Shown here one piece after another: positions 18,983 through 24,911 of a stretch of DNA of 64,000 nt. The notes beneath the pieces are model-generated. The model was not told the origin of the DNA. It worked only from the letters and a program-made list of their open reading frames with translations, and ran no database searches. Within the stretch, counting starts at the first letter, position 1; every line of letters starts with the position of its first letter. The position numbers were made by a program, and so were the translations under genes. The DNA is from Thermoanaerobaculia bacterium. Lineage in GTDB: Bacteria > Acidobacteriota > Thermoanaerobaculia > Multivoradales > UBA5704. The stretch covers positions 96,001 through 160,000 of the forward strand of contig JBGAGQ010000004.1 in the NCBI GenBank assembly GCA_044226625.1. The letters are read 5' to 3'.

Positions 18983-19140
18983 GGTGGGGGCTCCTCGCGT
19001 CAATCGGTTCCGATCCAGGGGTCGCAGCCGTCTTCCAGCCTATGGTACCGCCCGTGCGCCCATCCGTAAAACTCGCTCCGGGGCCGTAGCGCCGCCCCCT
19101 CGACCCGAACCACGACGCTGGCCTCGATTCCGTTCGACGG

Positions 19141-19494
19141 TCACTCTGCCTCAGGGGCCGGTTGGAAGAAGATCTCGCGCACCTCGAACGGCATGCGGCA
19201 CGCCTTGGCTCCTCGGAGCGCCCACGCCATCGCCTCTTCGAGATTTTCGGTCTCGACGATGGTAATCCCGCCCACCAGCTCCTTGGTTTCGAGATACGGA
19301 CCGTCGGTGACGAGCGTCTCGCCGTCGGTCTGCGGCCGCACCGTGCGGGTCGGCCCGAGGCCCCCGGCGAATCGCCGGACTCCTGCGGCGACCATCTCCC
19401 GATTGAGCGCGTGGATGTCTTCCACCATTTTCTCGTCCACCGTGGCGGGATCGAAGTCGACGGGCAGGTATCCGGCAAACAGGTAGTGGGGCAT
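19141..19494 (-). CDS. YciI family protein
   Basis: 'VTDGPYLETKELVGG..IVE..NLEEAMAWA...EVR' motif; RBS GAGGAG. Confidence 0.88.
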   Translation of the reverse strand: MPHYLFAGYLPVDFDPATVDEKMVEDIHALNREMVAAGVRRFAGGLGPTRTVRPQTDGETLVTDGPYLETKELVGGITIVETENLEEAMAWALRGAKACRMPFEVREIFFQPAPEAE

Positions 19495-19655
19495 GGCGTC
19501 TCCTCGAGGATTGTCAGGCGGGCTCTCGTGCCGGCCTCTATTCCATACGTCGAACGAAGAGGTCCGAATTCGACAAGGTGGCCCCAAAAAGTTACGTCTC
19601 CGCGGTCGCTGCCGACGGTTCGCGCACTCCGCGACCCGACGTGCATGACACCGTG

Positions 19656-20099
19656 CTACGCCTCGGCCGTCTCGGTCCGCGGCGGCCACGCTCCGATCAT
19701 CTGCCGCAACATCACGATCTTGCCGAGGTGATAGGCGTTGTGCACCGCGAGGCTTTGCAGCTCCTCGGCCATCGTCACTCCCGGCTCGACCTCCTGCGCC
19801 AACCGATCCGGCGATTCCGTCCAAGCGATCGCTGCCCGGCAGCCGTCGAGGAACAGGCGCACCACGTCGTGCCACTGCTGCTCGTTCTCCGGCCCCGCGC
19901 TCGGGTAATAGTCGCCGGAGACTGGCTTTTCGCGCTCGACCACCGTTCGCTGCCACATCGCTGTATGCCAGAGCTCGTCGTAGATCGAATGCACCACGCC
20001 ACCCGGCCGCTGCGTCACCTGTTCGAAGGTCAGCCCCGAAAGGAGGTCCGCGCGCTCGCGGAACTCGCCGGTGAGGAAGAGATGTTTCCAGGTGCTCAT
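19656..20099 (-). CDS. DinB family protein
   Basis: 'HSIYDELWH...W' and 'HNAYHLGKI' motifs. Confidence 0.85.
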   Translation of the reverse strand: MSTWKHLFLTGEFRERADLLSGLTFEQVTQRPGGVVHSIYDELWHTAMWQRTVVEREKPVSGDYYPSAGPENEQQWHDVVRLFLDGCRAAIAWTESPDRLAQEVEPGVTMAEELQSLAVHNAYHLGKIVMLRQMIGAWPPRTETAEA

Positions 20100-20169
20100 C
20101 GGTTTTGCTCCCGGCACCGAGCGTGCGAGCTCTCCGTCCCTCCTCGAGCTCCCTCGCGAGGCTCGGCCG

Positions 20170-20712
20170 TCAGAACTTCTCCAGCAACGCCAGACCCCAA
20201 GTCGTGAACCAGAACGCGATGCCCAGGGAGCTCAAGACAATGCCGAAGACCGCCGCTCTCCGGAACATCCACGGTTGGGCACGAAGGATAGAGAGCGCGC
20301 GGAAGCCGAAGACGGCGGCGATCAGGGAGCCCAGCCCGCCGAACCAGAGAATCGACCAGACCATGGAAAGGCGCGAGAGCCGCCGGGCTTTTTCCATCTC
20401 CTCGGGCCGAAGAGTGGCCAGCTCCGTGTCCGCCTGAATCCCCGTCGGCACTTCTTCCTCGCGAGCAGCCTCGATCAGGTCGCGCAGGACCTCCCTCGCA
20501 TCCTCCAGACGATCCGAAGGCACCTGAATCTCGACTCCGCCTGTCGCGACGTTGAAGCCGCCGATCTCCCCCGCGCCGATCAAGGCCTGAACGCCCCCGT
20601 TTTTCGCGAAATAGGGGATCTCCGCCTCGGCGAGACAAGACTCTGCGATCGATTGATCCACGGGATCGCCGGGCAGATAGACGGTCACGAATTCTGAAGG
20701 ATGTGTAGGCAT
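20170..20712 (-). CDS. DUF2007-like domain protein with two C-terminal TM helices
   Basis: 'IAESCLAEAEIPYF...GVEIQVPSDRLEDAREVL' followed by two hydrophobic segments. Confidence 0.7.
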   Translation of the reverse strand: MPTHPSEFVTVYLPGDPVDQSIAESCLAEAEIPYFAKNGGVQALIGAGEIGGFNVATGGVEIQVPSDRLEDAREVLRDLIEAAREEEVPTGIQADTELATLRPEEMEKARRLSRLSMVWSILWFGGLGSLIAAVFGFRALSILRAQPWMFRRAAVFGIVLSSLGIAFWFTTWGLALLEKF

Positions 20713-20864
20713 CGAGCTACCTCGACTCTTCCGCCCAAAAGGGCAGGAGCGCTGCGTCATTCACCAGAAGGCTTCAGCGCCAGTTTACACGCGAAGGAAC
20801 GAGAGCCGAGCACAGGTCACCGCCCTTGAAGGCTCGGCGGCCGATGTGCTGCAATCCTCCGCCA

Positions 20865-21359
20865 ATGACCCGCGAGGAATACAACCAGCGAAGGCGGCAG
20901 ATCGAGGAGCGTCACCGGGCGACGATCGAGCTGATCGAGGCCGGCCGACTGGCGCAGCTGCGGGCGCTCGATCACGTCTGGCTGACCGCCGCGGAAGGAC
21001 GGGAGCCGATTCCGCCCAGCGCCGAGGAGCCAGCGCAGAGCTCGTCGCCGGGACGGAACGCGACGGATTCTTCGAAGGCTTCGCTCATGGCGCCCGCGGC
21101 TGATCCCGCTCCCACGAAGCGTCGCCGCGCGTACGAGTTGCTCGAACAGATCGAGGCCGCCTTGCCCTCGCTGCCCAACCCGTTCGACTATCACGACCTC
21201 CGCCGCGTTCTCGGCATCGAGCTGGATCGTGGCGCGGTCCGGCGCAACCTCGAACTGCTGGTCGAAGAGGAAATCTTGGGCAAGGAATCCCCTTCGAACG
21301 GCCGGTTTCGCCTTCTCTACAGGAAGTTGGTCCCCAGAGCGTCCCCGGAAACCGATTGA
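20865..21359 (+). CDS. Hypothetical protein: N-terminal coiled-coil helix, P/S/A linker, C-terminal winged-helix-like domain
   Basis: 'MTREEYNQRRRQIEERHRATIELIE'; C-terminal 'FDYHDLRRVLG..LDRGAVRRNLELLVEEEIL...LYRK' fits a wHTH pattern. Confidence 0.65.
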   Translation: MTREEYNQRRRQIEERHRATIELIEAGRLAQLRALDHVWLTAAEGREPIPPSAEEPAQSSSPGRNATDSSKASLMAPAADPAPTKRRRAYELLEQIEAALPSLPNPFDYHDLRRVLGIELDRGAVRRNLELLVEEEILGKESPSNGRFRLLYRKLVPRASPETD

Positions 21360-21965
21360 TGCGCGCGAAGATTCGCTCTCGCCTATCGGAAATGCGCGCG
21401 AGCGAACCGTTCAGGCGGTGAAGCCACGCAAAAATTCGCTCAAGTCCCTCAGAAATTCGCATTTTTCGGGGACTCCAGCGATTTCCTGGAGGACTTCAGC
21501 GTTTTTCTGCGGGACTTCACCGAATTATTGGGGACCTCAGCGATTTTCTGGAGGACTTCGGCCTATTTCTAGGGGACTTCAGCCAATTTCTGGGGGACTT
21601 CGGCGAATTTCTGGGAGGCTTCAGCCCTTTCTCGAGGGACTTCACCAAATTCGCGGGGGACCTCAGTGAATTTCTCGGGGACTTCGGCGCAATTCTGGAG
21701 GACTTCCGTCCATTCGCGGGAGACTCCAGCGAATTTCCCCAGCGACTCAAGCGCGTGATTGGGAGAGCACAGCGGTCGCCCCGGAAACCTCCGTGGCCTT
21801 CTAGGGAAGCTCCCCTCAATCGCGAGCGCCCCATCTCCTTGCGCCAGGGACCCGCACGCCCGGACGCGCGCAGAAACGGAACGCCTGGGCGAGGTCAGTC
21901 AAGTTGCGGATGCGCTGAAGGAATTTCCCAGCGCCTCGGACTCGTCTCGCGGAGATTCAGCGTTC
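21345..21965. repeat. Degenerate 21-bp tandem repeat array with internal orientation switch
   Basis: GAC(T/C)(T/C)C-type core recurs at 21471, 21492, 21513, 21533, 21554, 21575, 21596, 21617, 21638, 21659, 21680, 21701, 21722; 21431-21460 is the reverse complement of the unit; outer edges degenerate and approximate. Confidence 0.85.
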
Positions 21966-22021
21966 AACTACCGACCGCGGCATCTTAGCGACCTGCATAC
22001 GTCGTGCTTAAGGGCGGCGCG

Positions 22022-22333
22022 CTACCCTTTGCCGCGAGCCGCCAATACCTCCGATCGCAGAAGCCGCTCGCTGCGCATGACGTAGAGGATGTAAACGCGA
22101 TCCTGGTCCTGCCGATAGAAGATCCGGCACGGTGGCTCGACGAGCTGCCGGTATCGCCACCCCTTGAGCTCGGGCGGCTTTGGACCCAATCTTGGATGGT
22201 CCGCCAGCAGCTCGACGTGCTTGAACACTCGCTGGACCAGCTCCCGCGCCGCCTCAGGATTGTCGAGCGCGATGTAGTCCGCGATGGCATCCAGGTCGCT
22301 GAGCGCGGGCTCGGTCCAAACTACTTCAGCCAT
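22022..22333 (-). CDS. ParE/RelE family toxin
   Basis: 'MAEVVWTEPALSDLDAIADYIALDNPEAA...YRQLVEPPCRIFYR'. Confidence 0.9.
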   Translation of the reverse strand: MAEVVWTEPALSDLDAIADYIALDNPEAARELVQRVFKHVELLADHPRLGPKPPELKGWRYRQLVEPPCRIFYRQDQDRVYILYVMRSERLLRSEVLAARGKG

Positions 22334-22578
22334 CGTGCCATGCGCTGTTTGGCCTGGCCGTGCGTCAGGGTACGTCCGTCTTCGACGGCCTTCTCACCTC
22401 GAGCAATTCCCTCGAGGAGGGCCATCCTCTTCTGCAGAGCCTCAAAGGTCCCGACGTCCACGAGGTATGCACTCGGGAGACCGTGCTGCGTGATGAGGAT
22501 CGGTTCCTTGTCCCGCTCCAGCTCCGCAAGGAGCTCGGTCGCTTGACGCTTCAGGGTGGTCACGATCTCGGTGCGCAT
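22321..22578 (-). CDS. Phd/YefM family antitoxin
   Basis: 'TTLKRQATELL..L...KEPILITQHGLPSAYLVDV'; overlaps the toxin start. Confidence 0.9.
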   Translation of the reverse strand: MRTEIVTTLKRQATELLAELERDKEPILITQHGLPSAYLVDVGTFEALQKRMALLEGIARGEKAVEDGRTLTHGQAKQRMARWLK

Positions 22579-22580
22579 GG

Positions 22581-22600
22581 AGTGATACTAGAGTGTCACT
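22581..22600 (-). promoter_or_regulatory. Operator palindrome overlapping putative -10 (TAGTAT) of the phd-parE operon
   Basis: AGTGATAC-TAGA-GTGTCACT is a 7/8 inverted repeat; on the minus strand TAGTAT lies 6 nt before ATG. Confidence 0.6.
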
Positions 22601-22670
22601 TGCCTTCGGCGCAACCGATCCGCCAAGACCCTCTCTCAGGGCATGTTGAGCCGAATTCCAGGATGCAGCG

Positions 22671-23054
22671 TCAGGCCGTGGCCCGCCAAGCCATCCACCA
22701 CGCCGGGATGTGAAGGATGGCGACGGTCGCGGTCGTGATAACCGATATGACGTAGTCGGCTGGTGTGGCGATTCCGCGTTCGGTCGAGATCCGGCGATAC
22801 TCCTCGAGCCCGCGGGCGCTCATCCACACAGCCGAAGATAGGGCGACGCAACCGATCGTCGCGTGCAGACCTTTGAACGATGCCCCGGCAGGCCAAGAGC
22901 CCATGCCTAGGCCAACGCAACACGCCGCAAACGTCCCCACCACTGCATCGACGACGATCTTCCAACCGGGTACTCGCTCCTCGAAGTCATCCCACGAAGC
23001 GGCAACCGTGAAGCCCACGAGAGCTGCGATCCAGAGCCACGCCCACCACTTCAT
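22671..23054 (-). CDS. Small hypothetical membrane protein (about 4 TM)
   Basis: Hydrophobic segments; purine-rich RBS before MKWWAWL. Confidence 0.6.
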   Translation of the reverse strand: MKWWAWLWIAALVGFTVAASWDDFEERVPGWKIVVDAVVGTFAACCVGLGMGSWPAGASFKGLHATIGCVALSSAVWMSARGLEEYRRISTERGIATPADYVISVITTATVAILHIPAWWMAWRATA

Positions 23055-23396
23055 CGTCGCCCCTTCCTCTTTCACTTCTACCCATTGCTGTTCGCCCCGG
23101 ACCATCGACAGCCACCGCTGGAATGGATGCAGGCCGGACGTGTGCAGAGATCGAAATGCCTGGCCGAGGTTGCCCCACCGGCGGACGCACTAGAGGGACT
23201 CTCTCGCAGCCCTGGACCTTTCCCGGGGAGATTGGGCGGCTCAGCCGTCGACCGTGGTGCCTAAAGCGGCGCGACTCGGGAACTTCTTTCGAATGGGCGC
23301 GTCGGGGCGACCTGGTCCAAACTATCTCAACCATGGCGCCATGCGATACTCGGCCTGACCATGGGTCTCGGCCGACAATGGCTTGTTCGTCGCTGG

Positions 23397-23696
23397 CTAT
23401 GCGACCTGACGGCGTTGAGTCACGCGAACGGACACGCAAGCACCGGCATGACCGAGCATCTCGATCAAGCCGTCGACGTTAAAGTCGTCGATCTTCCCGC
23501 GCATCAGATCGCTTACCCGTGACTGAGTCACTCCGAGAAGTTTCGCGGCGGCAGGTTGGGTAAGTCCCTCGACCTCGATCAACTTCGTTAGCTCAATCAT
23601 CAAATCGGCTCGGATCTTGAGGTTCTCGGCCTCGTCTTCGCCGAATCCGAGATCGCCGAATACATTTCCGGTTGAGCGTCGAACCCGAACCGTCAT
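23397..23696 (-). CDS. HigA-like XRE/HTH antitoxin
   Basis: 'STGNVFGDLGF...LTQ.AAAKLLGVTQSRVSDLMRGKID.F'. Confidence 0.9.
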   Translation of the reverse strand: MTVRVRRSTGNVFGDLGFGEDEAENLKIRADLMIELTKLIEVEGLTQPAAAKLLGVTQSRVSDLMRGKIDDFNVDGLIEMLGHAGACVSVRVTQRRQVA

Positions 23697-24040
23697 TTCC
23701 TTCTCCCTTCCTCGCGGCGGAGGGCTTCAACCTGCTTGAGGCGCTCACGTGCCAGGGTCAGATCTACATCGCGAGTCTGCCGGCTTCTTTTCTCGAAAGC
23801 GTGCAGGACGTAGACCGCCTCCTCGAACTTCGCCACGTATATCACCCTGTGTTCTACGTGAGTGTGGATCCGAATCTCGTTGACACCTGCTCCAATGCTC
23901 GGCATTGGCTTCCAGTCAGTGGGCATCAAACCACGCTGGACTCGGCGCAGTTGGTAGCCGGCGATTCTCCGAGCCTCCGGTGGGAAGTCCAGCAGATCCT
24001 CGAAGGAGGCCCCAACCCACGAGACCATCTTTTCAGGCAT
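23693..24040 (-). CDS. HigB/RelE-like (Gp49-type) toxin
   Basis: 'GYQLRRVQRG..P.DWKPMPSIGAGVNEIRI...YVAKFEEAVYVLHAFEK'; toxin precedes antitoxin. Confidence 0.9.
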   Translation of the reverse strand: MPEKMVSWVGASFEDLLDFPPEARRIAGYQLRRVQRGLMPTDWKPMPSIGAGVNEIRIHTHVEHRVIYVAKFEEAVYVLHAFEKRSRQTRDVDLTLARERLKQVEALRREEGRRK

Positions 24041-24201
24041 GGAGCCAGTATACAAGCGGATGAATTGCCGGAGGGGGTCGGTTATGTAGAACGCGAGGCA
24101 GATTCGTTGGGCCCCGACCTAAGCTATCTGGAAGGCACCCAGTCTCGGGAGCTGGCCGAATGTCGTCTGTGACGCCTAGGGATCGCGAAGTGCGGGAAAA
24201 A

Positions 24202-24321
24202 TCACGAGCGCCGCTCGTTTACCCTCGCATCCCAGCCCTCATGAAACAGCGCAACAACATCTTCAACAAGATTCCCTTTCCGCTTTGAGGATGTGGTCTT
24301 TCCTGCGCTCTTGCGAGACAT
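24202..24321 (-). pseudogene. Possible truncated restriction-endonuclease-like remnant (39 aa)
   Basis: My translation: MSRKSAGKTTSSKRKGNLVEDVVALFHEGWDARVNERRS*, with RBS-like AGGTAGGA; resembles N-termini of Mrr-like nucleases (inference). Confidence 0.3.
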
Positions 24322-24368
24322 ATTCCTACCTGTCAACCAAAGGGAGCGAAGCAAGAGATGCCTGCACC

Positions 24369-24911
24369 TTAGATACGAAGGTGCTCCAGATGCTGATCGA
24401 GCGACACGAAGCGATGGGCCACTTCCTTCAGTTCCTTCGCGGCATGGTTCCAGAACACTACTTCCACCTTATAGCCGTCTTCCTGGAGTTCCTTGATGGT
24501 AGGCACATAGTCGGAGTCGCCTGCCACAAGGACGAAGAGATCCTCCCGGGCATCCCCTCGCTTGTACGCGTCCTTAGTGATCAGCGTGGCAATGCCTGTG
24601 TCGATCTTCTTCTCCTTGTTCCGCACGTTACGGTCTTCAAGGTGAAGCTCGAATCCGGCGCGTTCTGCATGGCGCCAGATGGAATCATTTGGCGGCGGAC
24701 GGGAACCGAAGAGGGCTACGCGCTTGATCTTAGAAAGATCACTTCCCGCAAGGAATTCATGGAGCTTTCCAAAGCTAATAGTGTAGCCATAATCAAAAAT
24801 TCCCTCTCGCATTGCCTCGACAATGTCCGCCGCGAGGCCCTGTTCTACAGTGCTTACTCTACGACCTTCGATGTAAAGATTTGAGTTGTCGACGTAAATG
24901 TAGTCAGCCAA
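24369..24911 (-). CDS. NYN domain (LabA/DUF88, PIN-like) nuclease
   Basis: 'IYVDNSNL', 'EKKIDTGI', 'LVAGDSDYVP', 'VEVVFW'; TTG start; locally lower GC. Confidence 0.88.
   Translation of the reverse strand: MADYIYVDNSNLYIEGRRVSTVEQGLAADIVEAMREGIFDYGYTISFGKLHEFLAGSDLSKIKRVALFGSRPPPNDSIWRHAERAGFELHLEDRNVRNKEKKIDTGIATLITKDAYKRGDAREDLFVLVAGDSDYVPTIKELQEDGYKVEVVFWNHAAKELKEVAHRFVSLDQHLEHLRI

Follow-up and report, generated by a model that had tools for sequence, protein, structure and literature searches.

Layout of the locus

The DNA considered here, referred to as the window, is a 64,000-nt stretch of contig JBGAGQ010000004.1 (assembly GCA_044226625.1) from a Thermoanaerobaculia bacterium; coordinates are positions within this window unless another contig is named. 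At 20865..21359 (+) it encodes a 164-aa protein, a reading frame backed by conserved relatives and an AlphaFold2 model, and downstream of this gene lies an array of 21-bp repeats in two opposite orientations. The gene and the array are examined as a candidate module consisting of a winged helix-turn-helix (wHTH) protein and its own DNA platform.

An original prediction, made from the letters of the sequence, had proposed a 21-nt-period array that flips its orientation, and both features were borne out. Tandem Repeats Finder (TRF) placed 11.8 copies of a period-21 repeat at 21461-21706 (69% matches, score 175), with the super-periods 42 and 63 scoring higher still (193 and 226, respectively). 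Matching with the consensus GGGGACTTCAGCGAATTTCTG gave eight hits in the window at three mismatches or fewer against 0.01 expected, a number reached by none of 100 shuffles. Read in register, the distal arm comprises 13 forward units at 21468..21739 (+), in agreement with the 13 or so clear units anticipated up to about 21740. These units have 1-8 mismatches and score 8.6-34.5 bits each; in order, the scores are 29, 30, 22, 32, 23, 34, 34, 12, 15, 32, 22, 9 and 24. All 13 differ from one another and abut head to tail without spacers, as had been foreseen, and a CRISPR array was rejected on account of this arrangement without unique spacers. One unit is only 20 nt long, a 1-nt deletion that produces a phase slip at 21510/21530 and matches the slip predicted near 21530.

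Ahead of the forward units, at 21429..21467 (-), a strong inverted unit (21429-21449; 3 mismatches, 30.5 bits) establishes the flip in orientation and, together with a junction half-unit (21450-21467), forms the dyad centre. The junction reads CAGAAATTCGnTTTTC and then GGGGAC, a combination seen again in related loci. The strong inverted unit and the half-unit, standing ahead of the forward units, thus give two 45-nt arms (21416-21460 and 21478-21522) that lie 17 nt apart, are 78% complementary and make up an imperfect palindrome at 21416..21522. Closer to the gene the proximal arm is weak, with up to three decayed inverted units at 21366..21428 (-), in-phase 21-mers of 9-10 mismatches and negative scores. 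One of them (21408-21428) retains GGTGAAGCCACG, with its GAAGCC core, as do decayed proximal-arm units in 31 related loci of the long-gap type B described below. Five to six inverted units had been predicted; one of these is significant, and the remainder have 9-11 mismatches and negative scores.

Other parts of the original prediction did not stand. The array does not overlap the stop codon (21357-21359), where the 21-mer 21345-21365 has 11 mismatches, and the scores of the 13 forward units follow no clear gradient of decay that would point to polarised growth. Degenerate units had been described to 21965, with a 22-nt slip near 21745; all 11 in-phase 21-mers in 21740-21970 have 10-18 mismatches and negative scores, and therefore neither the degenerate tail nor this second slip can be demonstrated. 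The tail at 21740..22021, between the array and a convergent ParE gene, is non-coding and has no units recognisable by in-register scoring. At 55% GC, compared with 66.6% over the window, the array forms an A/T-enriched island, and a search of 19000-24500 with Rfam gave no family at E ≤ 1.

A family of small winged-helix proteins

The AlphaFold2 model of the 164-aa protein (mean predicted local distance difference test score 71, above 84 in both folded parts) consists of a long N-terminal helix (residues 3-43), a disordered linker (45-83) and a wHTH domain (84-155). The domain is built from helices 84-102, 109-116 and 122-134 and strands 138-141 and 151-154, a helix-helix-helix-strand-strand topology that can be superposed on solved wHTH domains. 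Structure comparison with VIA-align matched FurB at Z 9.0, superposing 72 aa with a root mean square deviation of 2.0, and a PadR-like protein at Z 8.6; the best 50 rows all span residues 78-159 and are mostly wHTH domains, at Z values of 7-9 that lie near the tool's stated background. Z-alpha-type winged helices were among these matches, at Z 7.9-8.0. With Foldseek, SlyA, RovA and PadR were matched at E of about 1e-2 and probability 1.0. The wHTH fold that had been suggested for the protein is thus supported by the model and by both sets of structure matches.

No match to the protein was found in Pfam (E ≤ 0.01), NCBIfam or PADLOC, and a profile search against PDB sequences returned nothing significant (best E 0.084). 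Its neighbours in the Protein Atlas are unnamed clusters only, mostly from Acidobacteriota; the nearest named clusters, AbiEi_4, Mnd1 and HTH_24, lie at 0.82-0.84 and are leads only. A library of 1.84 billion proteins yielded 350 representatives of the family at E ≤ 1e-3. The named records inspected were all metagenome-assembled genomes (MAGs) of Thermoanaerobaculia, Holophagales or unclassified Acidobacteriota, and among these records the family is confined to Acidobacteriota of the Thermoanaerobaculia/Holophagales type. Each genome in the genus carries 4-8 family genes, with five in the window's own genome. Among 13 relatives, M1, T2 and 29 further alignment columns are invariant, and the protein start MTREEY is kept in all of them; R122, R127 and F107 are invariant throughout the family. 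In the third helix (122-134), proteins beside units of the window's type share RGAVRRNL, and other family proteins have [SA]L[YF]R[IVT][LF].

The gene stands alone behind its own conserved promoter-like element, TTGAAG, an 18-nt spacer and TGCAAT preceded by TGTGC (20826..20855, +), to which a promoter function is ascribed from an upstream alignment. Over 142 nt upstream of 39 family genes, this alignment contains a TTGCCG-type box, about 17 nt and then TGTGCTGCAATCC, 8-12 nt ahead of the start codon. A simple consensus scan found no sigma-70-type promoter and no intrinsic terminator, and did not call the conserved upstream boxes. In the window, 9 nt separate the boxes from the ATG, which makes a leaderless or almost leaderless mRNA probable, and conservation of the element suggests leaderless mRNAs across the whole family.

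Two identical copies of a distant paralog lie 2 kb apart elsewhere in the window's genome (C93:5506-5958(-) and C93:7558-8010(-)). Each has one in-frame TGA in its tblastn match and no 21-bp array alongside as judged by TRF; they may have arisen by recent duplication of a gene that was broken or recoded.

Arrays accompany family genes and diverge with them

Linkage was scored where a period-21 TRF row with a score of at least 50 lay within 800 nt downstream of a family gene. Among 33 family genes chosen by protein search, an array was present downstream of 24 and upstream only of 2, with none at the remaining 7; six genes from array-selected loci, fragments, one contig-edge gene and several G012/G013 rows were left out of this count. 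Proxy genes of the same genome, used as a control, had an array downstream in 105 of 5027 cases and upstream in 2.4%, and the rate of linkage is therefore 73% for family genes against 2.1% for control genes. All six family genes from the array-selected loci also have an array. A second set of 39 loci, collected with peptide patterns in named genomes and overlapping the first in part, gave an array downstream of 26 genes, upstream only of 6 and at neither position for 7; here, 109 of at least 125 TRF rows have a period of 21, 42, 63 or 84. Homologs of the protein are thus flanked by 21-bp arrays, which was one of the checks proposed with the original prediction. Viewed from the array side, by tblastn and a hidden Markov model of the family, a family gene was found beside 14 of 55 arrays of the window's unit type (12 full-length genes and 2 fragments), and at all 14 its 3' end points toward the array. 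In this unit type, the polarity of the proximal arm relative to the gene is always the same.

Unit sequences are wholly different between distant paralogs (ACGCGATGCGGACGATTCCGA, TGCCGCGAGTCACAACGAGCC and CGGGTTGAAACATTCAACCCG), and those beside distant paralogs are often perfect dyads, of which CGGGTTGAAACATTCAACCCG is an example. As a further proposed check had asked, the unit sequence was found to diverge along with the protein: the distance between unit consensuses rises with protein distance (Mantel Spearman r 0.61, p 0.0005, 0 of 2000 permutations). Beyond 55% protein distance, unit distance is at the random level (mean 11 of 21), with period and homogenisation still kept. Many distant loci also carry a few units of opposite orientation alongside the main array. 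The units turn over completely and the arrays stay 21-bp and two-armed; it is therefore the period and the layout that are conserved, and not the sequence.

Dispersed copies and other 21-bp arrays

On contig C74 the window's own genome has a second full array, similarly arranged, and on C103 it has a decayed copy. By DNA search, 6 of the 7 other genomes of the same genus were matched, with 10-34 matches each, and none of 33 genomes outside the genus. For comparison, 55 loci were assembled from 7 genomes, all of a single genus. Of these, 50 have three or more strong forward units, and 43 of the 50 have an inverted unit on one side. Two forms could be distinguished. In the short-gap form (type A), to which the window's array belongs, the arms stand 39 or 60 nt apart and there are 10-13 forward units; in the long-gap form (type B), decayed inverted units fill 144-228 nt from the strong inverted units to the forward arm. 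Alignment of type B copies brings out quasi-palindromes some 800 bp long, with common sharp ends in unrelated contexts (left CGAAGCCAC..., right ...GTGGCTTCCG). The ends are inverted copies of the unit core, and the GAAGCCAC/GTGGCTTC core repeats every 21 bp through both arms. At 38 of 43 two-armed loci, even across decayed units, the spacing from the outermost strong inverted unit to the first forward one equals 18 mod 21, taking values of 39, 60, 144, 165, 186, 207 or 228 nt. Units are homogenised within each array, and the arrays are frequently located at contig ends. Of 18 loci at which both flanking genes could be called, 1 has them divergent, a figure from a crude open reading frame proxy that was given no weight.

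Strong units (window 21468-21739 and 49 related loci) vary between two states at positions 3, 12, 15, 18 and 21, and additionally at position 1. At position 15 every one of the 146 units has A or T, in a genome of 68% GC. Translation does not account for this variation.

Period 21 is the commonest TRF period in the window's genome, accounting for 216 of 964 rows, with period 18 next at 86 rows. There are 49 long 21-bp arrays in this genome, of many unrelated unit families and mostly intergenic or outside reading frames with high GC at third codon positions; examples found by TRF are C33:47972-48322, C124:7860-8606, C81:13305-13721 and C58:227228-227723. A palindromic core, GGGAACTCACTTCCC or GTGCACCGGTGC for instance, is frequent among units of these arrays, and the other families combine a conserved core with variable spacer positions that are not 3-periodic. 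Downstream of four other arrays, at 83-332 nt, genes for a second family of small proteins (121-130 aa) that look all-helical were observed, with the arrays on their 5' side (C109:48824-49213(+), C11:10810-11172(+), C123:4573-4950(+) and C93:113837-114205(-)). This may be another family of array-linked binders.

Coding and RNA readings of the array

It is very improbable that the distal arm is translated as a heptad repeat, (G/E)DF(S/G)(E/D)FL, either as a small protein of its own or by read-through of the TGA. The idea draws on the length of the unit, which equals seven codons, and on the 146 pooled units, in which the variable positions 3, 12, 15, 18 and 21 are third codon positions and most changes are synonymous (GGG/GGT, AGC/AGT, TTT/TTC, CTG/CTC/CTA). 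The frame is open in 43 of 50 arrays, and in the window and on C74 it is the frame of the upstream gene behind its TGA, the window's first three units being in frame. Yet the antisense frame is open just as often (43 of 50), and by a reading of the codon table synonymous changes are about as frequent in it; furthermore, the window's own copy is frameshifted at 21530 and a start codon is missing from several copies. Over the 150 nt upstream, the proposed frame is open at 16 of 45 loci, compared with 30 of 45 for another frame. Glu and Asp would always be written GAA and GAT, with GAG or GAC in 0 of 146 units, despite the 68% GC of the genome, and other 21-bp array families lack a 3-nt periodicity and are in many cases palindromic. 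The 3-periodic pattern is restricted to the strong units, and frame conservation beyond them, with a start codon, was not found. In decayed arms, differences at codon positions 1, 2 and 3 numbered 146/148/147, 490/563/530 and 295/300/306, and in homologous tails 307/331/329; 1-nt indels are common here, and 23 of 35 alignment gaps in the tails are of 1 nt. With no codon periodicity in the flanks and decayed arms, we conclude from these comparisons that the array is in all likelihood non-coding. A read-through fusion across the TGA was rejected in particular, as TAG or TAA stands ahead of the frame at 5 of 13 other loci and the upstream DNA is not generally open. By frame coordinates, the match to the gene's frame is seen in the window, on C74 and at two of three further co-directional loci, which are mutually related.

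Only five proteins in a library of 5.8 billion resemble a translated array. One of them, P0001, has array-like repeats followed by a part with Pfam PF12784 and PF09811, and the source of P0004 calls it an antitoxin; both are probably annotation artefacts of gene callers reading through arrays into the next gene.

An action of the array as RNA, whether as an mRNA 3' end or a separate transcript forming a long hairpin for stabilisation, termination or processing, or protein-bound tandem stem-loops, is also unlikely. The array is mostly downstream of the gene on the same strand (the 24 of 33 and 26 of 39 genes above), the constant polarity of the proximal arm would suit a transcribed element, units of distant paralogs form perfect small hairpins, and Z-alpha-type winged helices are among the structure matches of the protein. 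As RNA, the palindrome 21416-21522 folds at -46.1 kcal/mol (z -3.6 against shuffles). On the other hand, its left arm is 78% complementary to the mirror unit and 83% complementary to distant units at 21582-21623; the pairing is hence not specific, and the long RNA hairpin raised in the original prediction gains no specific support. Eight family genes have their array upstream only, there is no U-tract terminator and no Rfam family was found in the region searched. The strict 21-nt period has no obvious meaning in RNA, yet equals two turns of B-DNA. A sponge RNA of the CsrB/RsmZ type was dropped because the genome lacks CsrA: PF02599 was not found in the 97.9%-complete assembly, and control genomes were matched.

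A proposed binder and its docking array

The reading towards which we lean, at a little better than an even chance, is that the wHTH gene and the phased 21-bp array are one module, a cognate binder with its docking array, of which orphan copies have been dispersed. The 164-aa protein would be a small DNA binder with an N-terminal helix that probably serves in dimers or oligomers, a flexible linker and a winged helix, and the array would be its private docking platform. Each 21-bp unit has a conserved core (GGGGACTTC in the window, GTGGCTTC in sister copies) followed by an A/T tract. As the units are spaced exactly two helical turns apart, bound winged helices would come to lie on one face of the DNA, and the two arms of opposite polarity, meeting at the dyad just past the gene, could carry two filaments of opposite polarity. 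Paralogous genes would each have an array with a different "address", and orphan arrays could be bound in trans by a family protein. At a guess, the nucleoprotein complex might form a local chromatin-like block at gene ends or serve in maintenance and spread of the array element. A phased binding platform for the adjacent protein, as put forward originally, is thus supported by the linkage, the co-divergence and the wHTH fold. The phase kept between the arms, the lack of coding character, the differing recognition helices and the A/T enrichment of the array also count in its favour. Binding of the units and oligomerization through the N-terminal helix are inferred.

Several observations weigh against this module. 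The genome has 49 long 21-bp arrays and only 5 family genes, and 2 of 41 arrays resemble family-adjacent units, both being of the window's type; the 21-bp period therefore does not depend on this family alone. Furthermore, 41 of the 55 arrays of the window's unit type are orphans, located between genes with no family gene adjacent, and of the predicted attachment of array to gene it is therefore the enrichment that holds and not exclusivity. The window's forward unit is not a dyad, an uncommon situation for the target of a symmetric wHTH dimer. Simple co-inheritance would also make a gene and the DNA next to it diverge together, and partial Mantel terms for the recognition helix and wing (r 0.28) and for the rest of the protein (r 0.21) are both significant, so read-out is not separated from shared ancestry. 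The gene's own promoter has no excess of the unit motif (9.47 matches of 13 for self, 9.42 for non-self), and an autoregulatory operator was rejected for this reason. Finally, the genomes are related MAGs and kin are not independent, so the p-values overstate.

Two explanations dispense with a role for binding. The array could be a selfish palindromic minisatellite, spreading between genes, unaided or with the help of some enzyme, in the manner of miniature inverted-repeat transposable elements (MITEs), with the wHTH gene as a passenger or what is left of a longer element; we hold this to be fairly unlikely. The 10-34 DNA matches in 6 of 7 genomes of the genus and 0 of 33 outside it, the 41 gene-less loci, the sharp common ends of the 800-bp type B quasi-palindromes in unrelated contexts and the tendency of arrays to terminate contigs would all suit such an element, and a precedent is described, as far as the abstract goes, in BrickBuilt, a minisatellite inside a MITE (PMC4596501). 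No transposase was seen, and it would be left unexplained why distant paralogs in other genera keep unrelated two-armed 21-bp arrays beside the 3' end of the gene; were the protein the element's own binder, a MITE-like element would also be compatible with the module. Alternatively, the arrays might be functionless by-products of replication slippage or gene conversion, arising in a lineage with a preference for 21-bp units and standing beside the gene by accident, a view for which the predominance of period 21 in the genome, the many unrelated unit families among the 49 mostly intergenic arrays and the homogenization of units within arrays can be cited. We regard this as distinctly unlikely given the 73% of family genes with an array against 2.1% in the control, the persistence of arrays at orthologous and paralogous loci through complete sequence turnover, the conserved core with variable spacer positions found in every unit, and the strict phase held by the arms.

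A wider proposal, possible but rather doubtful at present, is that the module represents a hitherto undescribed Thermoanaerobaculia class of elements, in which paralogs each have a private two-armed 21-bp address at their 3' end and gene-less copies, and nucleoprotein blocks shape transcription or the chromosome at dozens of sites per genome. By analogy, this would amount to a partnership of the REPIN-RAYT kind built on a DNA binder and not on a transposase, and the 40 or so other arrays of the genome would be platforms for unrecognised binders, such as the helical family of about 125 aa. If the protein binds the array, a ready set of orthogonal pairs of protein and DNA address would be at hand, with dozens of paralogs each using a different 21-bp unit in one geometry, which would help in understanding the way DNA is read by winged helices and could supply synthetic biology with parts. 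The module would also be a chromosomal, multi-copy counterpart to iterons and centromeres, and would offer a handle on why whole lineages fill intergenic DNA with repeats two helical turns apart. For annotation, 21-bp arrays break assemblies and are occasionally called as fusion proteins (P0001, P0004).

Comparison with known systems

In the open-access full texts searched, no account was found of such arrays in Acidobacteriota or of wHTH genes with 21-bp arrays. Iterons of theta plasmids (pPS10, R6K, P1 and RK2) are direct repeats of about 17-22 bp, spaced about two turns apart beside the gene for a winged-helix Rep protein that binds them, with inverted copies beside the direct ones and a unit sequence private to each replicon. 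The module resembles them in its phased repeats by a winged-helix gene, its inverted copies and its own unit sequence. It differs in having one winged helix and a single long helix where Rep has two winged helices, with no Pfam match at E ≤ 0.01, in its 10-18 units per arm against 3-7 in iterons, and in the presence of 4-8 paralogous modules per chromosome with many orphan arrays. The 4-8 genes and 10-34 array matches per genome do not fit a single origin (DnaA boxes were not searched for), and the window's contig is 202 kb long and of chromosomal type.

In partition centromeres (parC-ParR, tubC-TubR, sopC-SopB), a small dimeric binder, a winged helix in the case of TubR, coats tandem repeats, often in two blocks, and forms a filament or ring. 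A small DNA-binding protein with short tandem repeats in two blocks is common to both, but no NTPase gene of the ParA, ParM or TubZ type lies among the neighbours within 3 kb, the copies are numerous and chromosomal, and the array comes after the gene and not ahead of an operon. With a single winged helix, no Rep match, no NTPase neighbour and many chromosomal copies, the module belongs neither to the iteron/Rep nor to the partition systems.

REPIN-RAYT systems, in which REP/BIME elements go with REP-associated tyrosine transposases of the IS200/IS605 TnpA fold, consist of paralogous genes that are each flanked by their own short palindromic repeats, which are also dispersed without the gene and are lineage-specific. 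The likeness is one of logic only, a repeat family of its own flanking the gene and dispersed between genes being found here too; the protein is a winged helix with no HUH/Y1 transposase domain by Pfam or fold matches, and a long phased two-arm tandem array takes the place of a hairpin doublet of 20-40 nt. H-NS and Rok share the domain order, with an N-terminal helical oligomerization part, a flexible linker and a C-terminal DNA-binding domain, which is a winged helix in Rok. As there, the target is A/T-richer than the genome (55% against 66.6% GC in the window), but H-NS and Rok have loosely defined AT-rich targets genome-wide and no private tandem array, there is no sequence or family match, and arrays of other paralogs of the 164-aa protein are not AT-rich. 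A toxin-antitoxin system of type III (ToxIN type), whose repeats lie upstream of a gene for an endoribonuclease toxin, was rejected, as the array is mostly downstream, the protein has a winged-helix fold and no PADLOC match was obtained for it.

For the orphan copies, the closest likeness is BrickBuilt of Porphyromonas gingivalis, which is described in its abstract as a spacer-less array of 23-nt units with inverted-repeat ends, in about 19 copies per genome that are always intergenic (Klein et al. 2015, PMC4596501). The spacer-less array, the inverted ends, the many intergenic copies and the narrow host range are all shared with this account (PMC4596501). Its unit is 23 nt where that of the arrays described here is 21 nt, the latter have two inverted arms of the same unit, and the abstract describes no cognate protein gene (PMC4596501).

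Neighbouring genes

The module was predicted to border a toxin-antitoxin/nuclease islet, and Pfam searches agree. All on the reverse strand, these genes encode ParE (22022-22333), Phd/YefM (22321-22578), HTH_37 (23397-23696), a HigB-like Gp49 protein (23693-24055) and an NYN-domain protein (24369-24911). The genes within 3 kb of the module encode DinB, DUF2007/DUF4190, ParE, Phd, HTH_37, Gp49 and NYN.

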